A stretch of 64,000 nt of DNA from Escherichia phage AugustSocin, in the sequence record MZ501052; one strand, written 5' to 3'. Below the pieces are notes generated by a model. That model was not told where the DNA came from, did not search any database, and saw only the letters and a program-made list of their open reading frames with translations. Numbering within the stretch: position 1 is the first letter of the stretch; each line of letters opens with the position of its first letter. Shown here piece by piece: positions 31,642-35,879 of this stretch. The position numbers were made by a program, and so were the translations under genes.

Positions 31642-32797
31642 TTAACTGTTCGAGGTCAGTTTCTAAATCAGCAGCTGATTTACTTTTACTTTCTGGAGAT
31701 TTAAATTTTTCAACCTTTGAGTTAATCAATTCATCAACTTCAGCTTCAACAATTTCATTGCTATCAATAGCACCTAACTGATAAGCACGTTTAATAGCAT
31801 CTCGGAATGGTTGATGCTTAAATAAAGGACCCCAGAATGTAGTGCAGTTGGTATCTTTTGCACGCCAAGATTTTTCTTCGCGAATCATCTCACCGGTTTC
31901 TTCATCAAGAAATTCACGAGCATACCAACCGTTCTTAGGTTTTACCACGAATCCTAATTCTAGAGCCATATCTAACAATCCAGAATAAGGATCGATACCA
32001 CCGTCAAATTTAACATCAATAAAGAATTTACTTTTTTCTTTAACGGTACGAGATTTTTCTACATTTAGAACAAATTGATACCCCTGAAGATCAGAACCAT
32101 CTTTAATCTGGCGTTTACCGATAATGAATACGGTATCAGCCGAATACATTACGCCTGTACCACCTGTCATCACGGTTTTACTAAACATTTCAATTGTTTC
32201 AATTGTATGGTTAACCGCAACACATGGAATATTTTTAATGCTAAAATAAGGAGTAACAATACGGAATAATGACTTCAGTGATTTAGCACGAGTCATATCT
32301 GCCACAGATTTTTCATTCAAGGCATCTTCCGTTTCTTTCTTAGAAGCCATATTACCGATTGAGTCGATGAATACAATAACCTTTTCACCGCGCTCAATAG
32401 CTTCAAGCTGGTTCACCATATCAATTTTCAGCTGTTCAACTGACTGAATCGGCGTATGAATTACTCGTTCCGGGTCAACTCCCATGGATCGCAAATAAGC
32501 TGGAGTAATACCAAATTCACTATCATAGAATAGACAAACCGCGTCAGGATATTTGTTCAAATATGCCGCAACCATAGTCAAAGACATATTTGATTTAAAG
32601 TGTTTAGAAGGCCCTGCGAAAATAGTTAAACCAGACTGCATGCCGCCATCAATCGCACCAGAAATAGCAATATTAAGCATTGGGATTTTTGTACGGATTA
32701 CATCCTTTTCATTAAAGAATTTAGATGTAGTCAGTTCAGCAGTCATTTTAGAAGTGGAAGCTTTAATCAAACGGGATTTTAAATCTGCAATAGACAT
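31616..32797 (-). CDS. uvsX: UvsX recombinase (RecA-like)
   Basis: 393-aa ORF; Walker A GPSKHFKS; near-identical to recalled T4 UvsX. Confidence 0.95.
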   Translation of the reverse strand: MSIADLKSRLIKASTSKMTAELTTSKFFNEKDVIRTKIPMLNIAISGAIDGGMQSGLTIFAGPSKHFKSNMSLTMVAAYLNKYPDAVCLFYDSEFGITPAYLRSMGVDPERVIHTPIQSVEQLKIDMVNQLEAIERGEKVIVFIDSIGNMASKKETEDALNEKSVADMTRAKSLKSLFRIVTPYFSIKNIPCVAVNHTIETIEMFSKTVMTGGTGVMYSADTVFIIGKRQIKDGSDLQGYQFVLNVEKSRTVKEKSKFFIDVKFDGGIDPYSGLLDMALELGFVVKPKNGWYAREFLDEETGEMIREEKSWRAKDTNCTTFWGPLFKHQPFRDAIKRAYQLGAIDSNEIVEAEVDELINSKVEKFKSPESKSKSAADLETDLEQLSDMEEFNE

Positions 32798-32874
32798 TCA
32801 TTTTTTCCATAGGCATCATTATATTTTCCTCACTGGTTAAAGATAAAGTAATTATAACACAATAAATTTAGGCA

Positions 32875-33717
32875 TTAATCAACTGCTATCGGATGAATAG
32901 CATTAAACTTATGAAATGCTTCTGATTTTTCTTTACGTGAAACACACATGCGAAGAACCTTTAATGGCTCATCTTCTTCACCCAACGATTTTCGTTTTTC
33001 AATATTCGATGTTTTCCAACGAGCTTGTTCTGGAAACTCTCTATTGATTTGCTCAAGCGCTCTATTATGTTTAGAATTACTACGAATTGAACTGCACCCT
33101 CCAGGAGCTTGTGCTTTTCCAGATACAACCAGATATTTGAACAAGGCCAAATGCGGATAACCTTGATTAATTAAATTGAGAAATGCATACATATCTTCGC
33201 ACAAATCAATTTTTCCATACCCAATTTGTTCTGTCGTAAGTTTTCCAAGGTCATACCATGTATTCGTGAATCCATATAAATTTTCACGATAATTACCCCA
33301 AGATGAAGTAATTTTAAAAATAGGTAGACGAGCATGACCGTGATAATACCCACAATCCATGGCATCTTCGACGTATTGAATCAATTCATAGAACTGTTCA
33401 CGAGTCAATTGATTGACTTTATCCACACAACGACGATCATCTCTTTTTCGCATTGAACTCATACGAATAGTAGTATCATCGTCAATCATCCAGATTCGTT
33501 GACCTGCATACATATCAGTAATTGCTTTACGAGTACCGGCAATTCCATTAACATCATCAGGAATAGTTACAATTTTAGCTTTAGACCCATAGGCATCATA
33601 ATAAGCTTTTTCTTCATGTTCACGTACTACGATATGAGGTTCATAATCAGTCGGAAACATATCAAGGGCAGAAACTGCCCCTACACGTTGATAGCTCGGA
33701 ATTACGAATTGAATCAT
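32875..33717 (-). CDS. glycosyltransferase at the beta-gt locus, likely T2/T6-type beta-glucosyl-HMC alpha-glucosyltransferase
   Basis: 280-aa ORF with DxD-like motif (MIDDDT); occupies the beta-gt position but is shorter and unrelated to 351-aa T4 beta-gt. Confidence 0.55.
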   Translation of the reverse strand: MIQFVIPSYQRVGAVSALDMFPTDYEPHIVVREHEEKAYYDAYGSKAKIVTIPDDVNGIAGTRKAITDMYAGQRIWMIDDDTTIRMSSMRKRDDRRCVDKVNQLTREQFYELIQYVEDAMDCGYYHGHARLPIFKITSSWGNYRENLYGFTNTWYDLGKLTTEQIGYGKIDLCEDMYAFLNLINQGYPHLALFKYLVVSGKAQAPGGCSSIRSNSKHNRALEQINREFPEQARWKTSNIEKRKSLGEEDEPLKVLRMCVSRKEKSEAFHKFNAIHPIAVD

Positions 33718-34355
33718 TTAAGTGCCTTACATTTGTCAAAATGGTATCTTGTCATATTTGGCCCACGTCCTTTTAGTCCGCAATGCGGACATATTTTTTC
33801 TATCAAATTATGAGGTTTTCCTTTACGATTTTTAGACATCGTTTCTTTAATTATTTTAGCTTTTTCTACGCCAAAAATTTCTTCATAAGTTTTACCAGAA
33901 TTTTCCTTGGCTCGATTTATAATTCCATATGCCTGCTCATTTTTACCATACATTGGATTACCTTCGCCTTTCATTCTTTTAGAATGATCAGGACGCTTGA
34001 TTCCACGAAAGGCATTTCCGCACTTATATCTTTCTTCTGGAGATAGTTTTTTACCGTACATTCCATTTAATTTGCCTGGAAAACTTCCTCCCCATGCTTC
34101 ATTCTTTAAATTATATGAATCCGGACAATTAGCAGCATCTAAACAAGTTAAAATAATTTCTTCAACCTGTCTAAACATTGGTCCTTCATATAATATTTCT
34201 TTATTAAAGGATTTTATTCCATATTTCTTTTTAGCATGTTGCCAAACTACACCCGAACCATCATAATTCGGGTTGTGACCATCATGACTTCCTATATACC
34301 ACTTTTTAGTTTTAGGATGTTTATACTTATAAACATGCGGCACATTTACTTCCAT
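33714..34355 (-). CDS. GIY-YIG family homing endonuclease (Seg-like)
   Basis: N-terminal VYKY...KWYIGSH (GIY-YIG-like); basic C-terminal NUMOD-like repeats; CPHC...C zinc-finger-like end. Confidence 0.6.
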   Translation of the reverse strand: MEVNVPHVYKYKHPKTKKWYIGSHDGHNPNYDGSGVVWQHAKKKYGIKSFNKEILYEGPMFRQVEEIILTCLDAANCPDSYNLKNEAWGGSFPGKLNGMYGKKLSPEERYKCGNAFRGIKRPDHSKRMKGEGNPMYGKNEQAYGIINRAKENSGKTYEEIFGVEKAKIIKETMSKNRKGKPHNLIEKICPHCGLKGRGPNMTRYHFDKCKALK

Positions 34356-35086
34356 TTTCCAGTATAATCCTTTTTAGCAATATGAGTCTCACCGGTGTTC
34401 CACCAATGGTCAACTAAATAAAACTGATTTTCGTACACATGAAGACTTCCAACGTTCCATATAATAGAACCTGCTTTATATTGCCGCGATGGGTCGCCTG
34501 CATTCAAATCAGATACTAATTTATCTAGTACGTATTTTTGCCAAGCATAATCATTACGATAGCCTGCCCAGCAATCATTGCTTCTCATGCTAACAACCGC
34601 ATTGACTTTCTTATCACGAATCAGGTACTGTACTGTATTAGTACACATGAAATCTGACATACCATCTTTATTGTAGTCAAATTGCATGGATGGACGAGTA
34701 TAAATCATGATACCACGTCGAGAATCAGGATTTTGACCAAGTTCAGCTAAACACATATCATACTGGGCATAGTTATCTTCTGACCAAATAGCCCAACCAT
34801 AATTCGAGTTAATTTCGCCTTTAGAAGATGCTACCTGCTGCCAAATCTTTGGTGTTTCGCCTGGAATATCTTTAACAAACAAGCTCTTAGATTTATACCA
34901 TTCAAGTTCACGCTGAATGTATTCATCATTAAGAGCGCCAAAAATAAACGGTTCATCTGCTACAAATGATGCGCCAATAATTTCAATAGTTTTAACACCG
35001 GTTTTATCAACTACGAAATCTTTTTCTTTTAATGCAAGCCCCAAATGAAGACGGATTTCTTCAACTGTCATAGAGTCACTAATCAT
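34346..35086 (-). CDS. 42: dCMP hydroxymethylase gp42
   Basis: 246-aa ORF; thymidylate-synthase-like fold motifs; size and synteny. Confidence 0.92.
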   Translation of the reverse strand: MISDSMTVEEIRLHLGLALKEKDFVVDKTGVKTIEIIGASFVADEPFIFGALNDEYIQRELEWYKSKSLFVKDIPGETPKIWQQVASSKGEINSNYGWAIWSEDNYAQYDMCLAELGQNPDSRRGIMIYTRPSMQFDYNKDGMSDFMCTNTVQYLIRDKKVNAVVSMRSNDCWAGYRNDYAWQKYVLDKLVSDLNAGDPSRQYKAGSIIWNVGSLHVYENQFYLVDHWWNTGETHIAKKDYTGKWK

Positions 35087-35239
35087 TTAAACCTCAATTG
35101 ATACATTCATATTTAACTTGTAACAGTAATAAACCCCAACCTAAAATAATAGTTGGAATCATAAGAGGAACCGTTACACTATAGTATATACTTATTATAA
35201 TCATCAAGATTAAAAGCAACACTGCTATAATTTTGCTTT

Positions 35240-35491
35240 TCATTCCTTCTCTCTGATGATAATTACTTGATTTGGTTGTGCAGACTTTTTAGTTTCACCA
35301 GCAATTGACCAAATAAATGTAATAAACCAACCAATAATTGACCAGTTAAACAGTAAAGATGTGAAAAAGATTCCTACTGTCGATTTTGACCCACGCATCA
35401 AGGCAATAAACCATGGAAGCATGTATATAATAATAGCCAACACACCTGAAACTAAAACCATAAAAATTGAACCTGCTACTAAAGTTTCCAT
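35240..35491 (-). CDS. imm: Imm (immunity to superinfection) membrane protein
   Basis: 83-aa ORF with two TM helices; matches recalled T4 Imm. Confidence 0.85.
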   Translation of the reverse strand: METLVAGSIFMVLVSGVLAIIIYMLPWFIALMRGSKSTVGIFFTSLLFNWSIIGWFITFIWSIAGETKKSAQPNQVIIIREKE

Positions 35492-35498
35492 GTTTTCC

Positions 35499-35879
35499 TC
35501 ACTTAGTCAAATTTTTTACACATGAATTATAAGAATTCACTACATACTCCATCGGAGCATTTTTACCGGTACGCCATTGGTAATTATTAGCCCAATTTGC
35601 CCAAAGCTCGGCGCAGTAGTTTTCAATTTTTTCTTCGCGTGTAATTACATCCGAATTACGATATGCTTGAGCAGATTCATCTGGACGAATAGCTTCGTCA
35701 AAATTTGCCTGCATTTGTTCTACTGTTTGCTTTGGAGCTTCTTTATAACACTTGACATTAGGATTATAAAATTTGCTTGAACAGTTTACAATTTTTCCTA
35801 CATCAGACTGATTTACTACCGGTCCTTGAGCTACACAACCAGTAAGACCTAATGCAATAACCAAAATAGCGATTTTCAT
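35499..35879 (-). CDS. putative lipoprotein (126 aa), imm.1 position
   Basis: signal peptide with LTGC lipobox. Confidence 0.5.
   Translation of the reverse strand: MKIAILVIALGLTGCVAQGPVVNQSDVGKIVNCSSKFYNPNVKCYKEAPKQTVEQMQANFDEAIRPDESAQAYRNSDVITREEKIENYCAELWANWANNYQWRTGKNAPMEYVVNSYNSCVKNLTK

Follow-up and report, generated by a model that had tools for sequence, protein, structure and literature searches.

What is the gene that separates the dCMP hydroxymethylase gene (gene 42) from the glucosyltransferase gene ba-gt in Escherichia phage AugustSocin, and how did it come to lie there? The stretch that we analyzed, 64,000 nucleotides (nt) from sequence record MZ501052 and here called the window, carries at this junction an open reading frame (ORF) of 213 amino acids (aa) at 33714–34355, on the minus strand like every other window feature given below. 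The original prediction, drawn from the sequence alone, took it for a Seg-like GIY-YIG homing endonuclease gene (HEG) wedged into a conserved operon. The best explanation of our comparative data, and one that we regard as probable, is a free-standing HEG of the Seg type that was inserted precisely at the boundary between gene 42 and ba-gt and that homes into gene 42.

A chance reading frame can be dismissed, because the product of the ORF matches PHROG 314, 'homing endonuclease' (E 2.3e-31), and has 70 homologues at E ≤ 1e-3, and because its intact diverged copies differ from the window copy by 12–13 synonymous changes and a single non-synonymous one. The latter count indicates that the HEG is under purifying selection. 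The ORF listing gives the ATG start and the length as first described, and BLASTP connects the product with SegC and SegA of T4. Judging from these relatives, it is an uncharacterized member of the Seg family, within a well-known class.

The predicted protein begins with a GIY-YIG nuclease domain, continues with two NUMOD3-like repeats and a helical linker, and ends in a CCHC zinc finger. The nuclease domain covers aa 7–90 (34086–34337) and contains Y9, Y20-I-G22, E65/E66 and Y81-N82. The basic repeats, aa 94–138 (33942–34076), presumably form a DNA-contacting linker, and the zinc-finger module (33729–33800) is presumed to be the DNA-binding domain that reads the target sequence. The motifs quoted in the original prediction were all found: VYKY at aa 8–11, KWYIGSH at aa 18–24, the NUMOD-like basic repeats, and the zinc-finger-like end CPHCG...H...C, with C189, C192, H205 and C209. 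The four ligands of this finger (C189-x2-C192-x12-H205-x3-C209) are invariant in an alignment of 30 of the 70 homologues (A1). In the same 30 relatives Y20 and G22 are invariant, and Y9, E65, Y81 and N82 are conserved in at least 90%.

The relationship to known nucleases emerges from the family. The A1 profile matches the I-TevI catalytic domain (1LN0) with an E of 0.005, and among the 30 members PF19835 (SegE_GIY-YIG) is matched by 11 and PF01541 by 6 (both at E ≤ 0.01), and NUMOD3 by 19. Residues V8-Y9-K10 of the HEG product align with I5-Y6-Q7 of I-TevI, Y20-I21-G22 with Y17-V18-G19, E65/E66 with E75, and Y81-N82 with Y89-N90. An AlphaFold model built on A1 (mean pLDDT 86) displays at its N-terminus the beta-beta-alpha-beta-alpha arrangement of the GIY-YIG core fold over about 90 residues, and at its C-terminus a beta-beta-alpha finger with strands 186–188 and 195–197 and helix 199–208. 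The closest structure is that of I-TevI, followed by PD-T4-3, T4 EndoII, UvrC and Eco29kI, which are all GIY-YIG nucleases. A viral structure library returned 209 matches at E ≤ 1e-3, and the named ones among those listed at the top are all Seg-like, NUMOD3 or GIY-YIG endonucleases. A search of the product against the PDB sequences with phmmer gave nothing meaningful, and an hhalign comparison of the family with the I-TevI sequence reached a probability of 34% only and was not relied on. As a separate observation, the CCHC module (query aa ~185–211) has 6–7 tandem matches in each of the proteins P0099, P0120, P0131, P0164, P0172 and P0201; it appears to be a reusable, repeatable DNA-binding unit that has no Pfam model.

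The gene is tightly packed between its neighbors. Upstream, gene 42 (34346–35086), the presumed target, is recognized by Pfam Thymidylat_synt (1.3e-14) and PHROG 160 and is annotated as such in related records. Downstream, ba-gt (32875–33717; PHROG 842, 2.4e-88) encodes the beta-glucosyl-HMC-alpha-glucosyltransferase and is of the T2/T6 type, not the beta-gt of T4. The HEG overlaps both of them at stop and start codons, as had been described: its ATG start shares the 10 nt ATGGAAGTAA with the end of gene 42 (34346–34355), and its TGA stop overlaps the ba-gt start within an ATGA (33714–33717). In HEG-less phages, an identical ATGA links gene 42 directly to ba-gt. The ATG of the HEG arises from the K-W codons in the gene 42 tail of HEG-bearing (HEG+) phages, and likewise in the relatives at loci L005 and L006.

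This layout also bears on whether the gene might encode an intron endonuclease, like I-TevI within its group I intron. The nearest NCBIfam model is indeed named 'group I intron endonuclease', and some copies are annotated as 'site-specific intron-like DNA endonuclease'. However, gene 42 and ba-gt are both complete and overlap the HEG at their stop and start codons, and Rfam detects neither a group I intron nor any other RNA family in 32500–35500 (E ≤ 1). The ORF layout and the Rfam scan together refute a group I intron location, and we give this explanation next to no credence.

The distribution of the gene is sporadic, at roughly one in six phages of the T2/T6 type. A total of 510 phage records match the 2.4-kb locus, and the HEG is present in 77 of them, in every one at the gene 42/ba-gt junction, with copies 97.8–100% identical at the nucleotide level. 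The gene is therefore not common to all T-even relatives, and the interpretation as a mobile insertion into a conserved operon is supported. In an evenly spaced listing of the records, gene 42 and ba-gt overlap directly by ATGA in about 77% (RB27, RB3, phiD1, ime09 and a T2 record are examples), and the T4-type beta-gt stands in the place of ba-gt in about 7%. T4 itself has no seg gene at this junction, in agreement with the original prediction: a spacer of 23 nt separates gene 42 from beta-gt, and segA occupies the next slot, between beta-gt and uvsX. The source phage of the window is a Tequatrovirus, and its locus is 99.5% identical to that of Yersinia phage PYps14T and 99.4% identical to that of Escherichia phage G4498. 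Its uvsX to ba-gt spacing is just 77 nt, without segA, and no second Seg paralogue was found within the 64-kb window. In GenBank the gene is variously labeled 'hypothetical protein' or, by automatic annotation, 'homing endonuclease', 'SegD' or 'segE'. A literature search, with subscription journals outside its coverage, did not bring up any paper in which an endonuclease is described at this junction.

The indications of homing come from a population comparison of 8 HEG+ and 10 HEG-less (HEG-) Tequatrovirus loci over ±6.9 kb. The fixation index (Fst) between the two groups is about 0 across this region, save for the 300-nt bin that adjoins the HEG on the gene 42 side, where it reaches 0.75 with 6 fixed differences. 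In the same HEG+ genomes, the nucleotide diversity (pi) of the HEG is 0.006–0.018 against 0.03–0.06 for the flanking genes, a 2–6 times lower value that fits a recent spread onto many backgrounds. The per-site linkage (r2) is 0.6–1.0 from the HEG edge to +237 nt in gene 42 and then drops sharply to about 0; on the ba-gt side, linkage is absent already at the first informative site, 20 nt off, and r2 stays at or below 0.36 from there on. In our reading, this one-sided pattern is a population signature of co-conversion of gene 42 markers with the HEG, not an observed cross.

The same comparison speaks to the possibility that the HEG is ancestral and vertically inherited, its patchiness being due to repeated deletion instead of homing. 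A deletion derivative and relics do exist (L007 and L072–L074, described below), and the amino-acid identity between genera is similar for the HEG (62–70%) and for gene 42 (61–74%). Yet HEG+ genomes do not form a clade over the flanking 14 kb, the HEG is less diverse than its flanks in Tequatrovirus, and it is tied to an imported, divergent block of gene 42. Moreover, the HEG-less junctions are a uniform, precise ATGA with a different gene 42 tail, which random deletions would not regenerate. We therefore consider purely vertical inheritance very unlikely.

This foreign-looking block comprises the last 243 nt of gene 42 (codons 167–246 and the stop; 34346–34588), as delimited by the per-site linkage disequilibrium scan and by identity tables. 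Between the window and RB27 it is 79% identical, that is about 21% divergent, as against 97% for the first 495 nt of gene 42. When compared with gene 42 of HEG+ phages in other genera, the HEG+ version of the block is 0.68–0.70 identical and the HEG-less version 0.62. The two versions can also be recognized database-wide: the segment 34385–34480 is bimodal, with 84 records at least 95% identical and 430 at 80–90%, and over 34530–34605 there are 94 records at least 90% identical, typical T-evens being at about 78%. Just outside the block, the segment 34600–34700 is unimodal, and 427 records reach at least 95% identity.

Within the block, the differences between HEG+ and HEG-less phages are concentrated in four dense patches. 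The first, at the 5' edge, reads MRSND-CWAGY-RND in HEG+ phages and MRSND-VVFGF-RND in HEG-less T-evens; the second is DPSRQ versus DSTRQ; and the third is HVYENQF versus HVYSRHF. The fourth is the recoded last 30 nt of gene 42, GCTAAAAAGGATTATACTGGAAAATGGAAGTAA in HEG+ and GTGAAAAAAGATTATAACGGTGAGTGGAAATGA in HEG-less phages (34346–34378). All six of the six fixed differences fall in this tail, and the ATG of the HEG owes its existence to one of these, the change from GAG to AAA (E to K). The HEG+ tail resembles the gene 42 tails of HEG+ relatives in other genera.

These features can be assembled into a model of homing. In a mixed infection, the enzyme would cut the HEG-less allele within the last ~240 bp of gene 42, and the break would be repaired from the HEG+ genome by T4-type recombination, which would copy both the HEG and the 3' stretch of gene 42 in between. 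Protection of the HEG+ genome would come from its divergent 3' block, including the CWAGY version of the motif and the recoded 30-nt tail, which would provide the HEG start codon as well. Two candidate sites for cleavage and immunity can be proposed. One is the terminal 30 nt of gene 42 with the junction (the tail at 34346–34378), where all the fixed differences sit. The other is the stretch coding for MRSND-VVFGF-RND, about 205–240 bp upstream of the insertion point, in the catalytic-motif codons 167–179 at the 5' edge of the block (34550–34588).

Three pointers direct attention to the distant site, and more exactly to codons 167–168 (ATG/CGC), ~240 bp upstream of the insertion. First, the linked sites start at the first base of codon 168. 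Second, in another lineage, represented in IMG/VR by two HEG+ loci (L020 and L021) and two HEG- loci (L022 and L023) with flanks 94–97% identical, the mosaic polymorphism upstream ends at the same motif, and the sequence is uniform from there to the HEG. Third, the HEG-less Shigella phage Sf25 (L002, MF327009.1, 1655–1882) contains a 114-nt in-frame tandem duplication of 38 aa (TRPSM...AVVSM repeated; about 34586–34700 in the window), the junction of which lies between M167 and R168 and is unique among 50,697 phage records. This duplication is either a real scar of break repair or an assembly artefact, and we keep it only as a lead. Pentamers of the I-TevI-type cleavage motif CNNNG are seen by eye in both gene 42 alleles and do not distinguish them. 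On these grounds, cleavage at codons 167–168 is a tentative proposal, to which we assign somewhat less than an even chance.

The position of the Sf25 duplication, in a HEG-less phage and exactly at the edge of the linked block, could also be taken to mean that the enzyme is an active nuclease that chiefly serves the phage, either by excluding the 42/ba-gt markers of co-infecting relatives or by break-induced amplification. Such functions have precedents in SegB of T6, which brings about the segmental amplification of anti-defence loci (PMC13096335), and in an intron endonuclease through which phages engage in interference competition (PMC11620839). However, no feature of the window links the HEG to defence or counter-defence, and the Sf25 duplication occurs in one record, possibly as an artefact. 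A benefit to the phage does not, in any case, stand in opposition to homing and could go along with it; as the chief role of the enzyme we judge it unlikely.

Homing into gene 42 is also in line with the neighborhoods of the more distant relatives. All 14 relatives examined (44–71% identity) lie directly 3' of a gene of the Thymidylat_synt family, whatever gene follows downstream. Those with 58–70% identity are found directly 3' of gene 42 itself in several other lineages, namely in Jiaodavirus ValerieMcCarty03 (L005), with ba-gt downstream, in Yersinia phage MHG19, with a T4-type beta-gt downstream, and in two IMG/VR contig groups. Six distant members on metagenomic contigs (44–58%) begin 6–52 nt after a Thymidylat_synt-family gene on the same strand, and the genes downstream of them are mutually unrelated (IMPDH, helicase, NTP-transferase and several without an assigned function). 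A partial relative, P0062, follows a gp46-like gene instead. In the second lineage mentioned above, which shows a clean presence/absence polymorphism independent of that in Tequatrovirus, the insertion is 668 bp long and starts right after the gene 42 stop. A wider generalization would be that a widespread Seg-like lineage has been kept, in very different phages, with genes of the thymidylate synthase (TS) fold and cuts ~240 bp upstream of its insertion point instead of at that point, in the DNA encoding MRSND-x5-RND, the CWAGY and VVFGF versions being immunity and susceptibility alleles maintained by the endonuclease. We regard this idea as possible, though rather doubtful.

Degraded copies occur at the same location. 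In L072–L074 (IMG/VR), the last ~35–50 codons of a HEG remain at the usual site, ~40–170 nt past the gene 42 stop; this relic matches aa 178–212, the zinc-finger end, with 54% identity, and fits the decay phase in the life cycle of a homing endonuclease. Klebsiella phage vB_KpnM_GF (L007, MK421971.1, ~2395–2600, 'partial genome') carries a 633-bp deletion relative to ValerieMcCarty03, which removes the last ~109 nt of gene 42 together with HEG residues 1–178 and leaves a truncated gene 42 of 214 aa and the zinc-finger end of the HEG only. Frameshifted or split copies are present in Shinka, REP2/3 and PYps5T.

Several observations weigh against an active enzyme homing into gene 42. On the protein side, the single HEG sequence matches neither PF01541 nor PF19835 at E ≤ 1, its score with TIGR01453 (the NCBIfam model mentioned above) is 24 bits against a cut-off of 56, and no arginine aligns with R27 of I-TevI, at which position the family has a ~10-residue deletion. 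On the population side, the linkage sample is small. The association of the block with the HEG is not strict, as about 7–17 HEG-less records hold portions of the HEG-type block: T4_ev151 and CE1 lack nothing of it but the tail, and pSe_SNUABM_01 has no more than the CWAGY patch. These phages could be ancestors, could have lost the HEG or could be resistant recombinants. In the second lineage, HEG+ and HEG- loci do not differ at all in the last 250 nt of gene 42, so that no immunity polymorphism is visible. Finally, the edge of the block could simply be a crossover in a conserved stretch, the 21% divergence suppressing recombination within the block.

The observations on the protein also invite the view that the gene is a decayed or domesticated relative of the Seg enzymes, which binds DNA, for instance as a regulator, without cutting it, and is no longer mobile; the several frameshifted copies would agree with this. 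In the Pfam comparison suggested by the original prediction, the single sequence gives no GIY-YIG match and a sub-threshold NUMOD3 match (18 bits at aa 125–138, cut-off 20.4); the family profile matches the I-TevI domain. The lack of R27 need not be disqualifying, since T4 SegA and SegC share the same layout without the R27 helix, in which a conserved Y31-x-G33-S34-G35 ('Y-x-GSG') loop takes its place, and both are listed as active endonucleases in the review PMC2988022. Judged by these sequences, the missing helix would be a Seg flavor of the domain rather than decay, with the conserved R62 or K44 as a candidate substitute for R27. Furthermore, the remaining catalytic positions (Y9, Y20, G22, E65, Y81 and N82) are invariant or nearly so in the 30 relatives, purifying selection is strong across the whole ORF, and the low diversity of the HEG on many backgrounds points to a recent spread. 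Loss of cleavage is thus, in our opinion, quite unlikely, and we retain a Seg-type enzyme homing into gene 42 as the probable explanation.

How the gene is expressed may vary. The T4 late promoter box TATAAATA is absent near the window HEG. In contrast, a TATAAATA late-promoter-like box lies in the spacer between gene 42 and the HEG in the relatives L018, L020, L021, L024, L035, L036, L104 and L110, 10–25 nt upstream of the start codon. Because the window HEG lacks such a box, its expression probably depends on the gene 42 transcript and on translational coupling to that gene; and because it lacks the box and overlaps gene 42, unlike these relatives, the timing of expression may differ between lineages. 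A scan for sigma-70 promoters and terminators near the HEG found no more sites than in shuffled sequence, and an RNA hairpin masking the HEG start codon was unsupported (z -0.8). A G+C-rich hairpin (GGGGCAG-TTT-CTGCCC) with a T-rich run, flagged as terminator-like, is located at 33663–33683, 30 nt inside ba-gt. Its sequence is kept in 18 of 18 Tequatrovirus loci and partly in Jiaodavirus, with or without the HEG, and could be due to constraint on the coding sequence or to an RNA element where ba-gt begins.

Other possible or annotated mobile genes were seen in the surroundings of the family. The HEG-less Escherichia phage vB_EcoM_CE1 (L114, ON229909.1, 2479–3096) has another annotated homing endonuclease directly after ba-gt, in the segA slot of T4. 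Additional NUMOD3 ORFs lie a few genes from family members in L106/L107 (4743–5390) and L110 (757–1680), which suggests that the neighborhoods around nucleotide-metabolism genes are rich in homing endonuclease genes. In Escherichia phage vB_EcoM_SYGD1 (L093, MW883059.1, 3200–5984), the gene 40/uvsX region is disrupted: the annotated uvsX measures 930 nt rather than 1182, gene 40 is shortened as well, and the two are separated by additional ORFs of 648 and 723 nt. This may be a further mobile insertion in the cluster.

Free-standing Seg endonucleases are a textbook class, one more of them is unsurprising, and this gene is already in GenBank in dozens of phages. Our analysis adds a testable model for an uncharacterized member that has been faithful to gene 42 across genera and that travels with a 243-nt, 21%-divergent piece of this essential gene, starting exactly at the catalytic motif. 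If the model is true, it would explain the sharp mosaic boundary in the T-even hydroxymethylase gene, and crosses among therapeutic Tequatrovirus isolates would be expected to show marker exclusion of the 42/ba-gt region. The Tev-type genome-editing toolbox would, in addition, gain a new module made of a GIY-YIG nuclease and a CCHC finger.

Among the enzymes of T4, the closest paralogue is SegC, with 35% identity over 147 aa (E 1e-14, BLASTP; tblastn against T4 segC, 2e-7). The two have in common the nuclease domain 'Y-x-GSG...KKYG...F..IL...E...YN.K', the NUMOD3-like repeats and a free-standing position between conserved genes, which for SegC are 5.1 and 5.3/5.4. SegC differs in its insertion site and target and does not possess the C-terminal CCHC finger. 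SegA is 44% identical in the nuclease domain over 71 aa (E 3e-11, BLASTP) and occupies a neighboring intergenic slot of the same replication and modification cluster (PMC2988022, Table 1). However, it lies one gene further along (uvsX/beta-gt), targets uvsX and has an unrelated C-terminal half.

With SegF and SegG of T4, the window HEG shares a free-standing position by a conserved gene and, as we propose, the co-inheritance of a one-sided tract. The targets there are genes 56 and 32, and cleavage and marker exclusion, which we infer for the window HEG, were demonstrated for those enzymes. SegG reportedly cuts at a distance and co-converts flanking DNA (Liu et al. 2003, as cited in PMC2993671). 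SegF is reported to mediate localized marker exclusion in gene 56 (Belle et al. 2002, as cited in PMC2993671; PMC2988022, Table 1).

The presumed target recalls two intron-encoded enzymes, I-TevI of the T4 td intron and I-BmoI of the thyA intron of B. mojavensis, which are aimed at thymidylate synthase genes (PMC5009752); gene 42 is a TS paralogue. If cleavage does occur at the distant site, the family would represent a further GIY-YIG lineage, after these two, directed against the coding sequence of a TS-family gene. In contrast to both, the window HEG is free-standing. In addition, the R27 helix, a CCCC zinc finger in the linker and a helix-turn-helix at the C-terminus are features of I-TevI, whereas the window HEG is devoid of that helix and terminates in a CCHC finger of the beta-beta-alpha type, a C-terminal end that is not seen in SegA, SegC or I-TevI.

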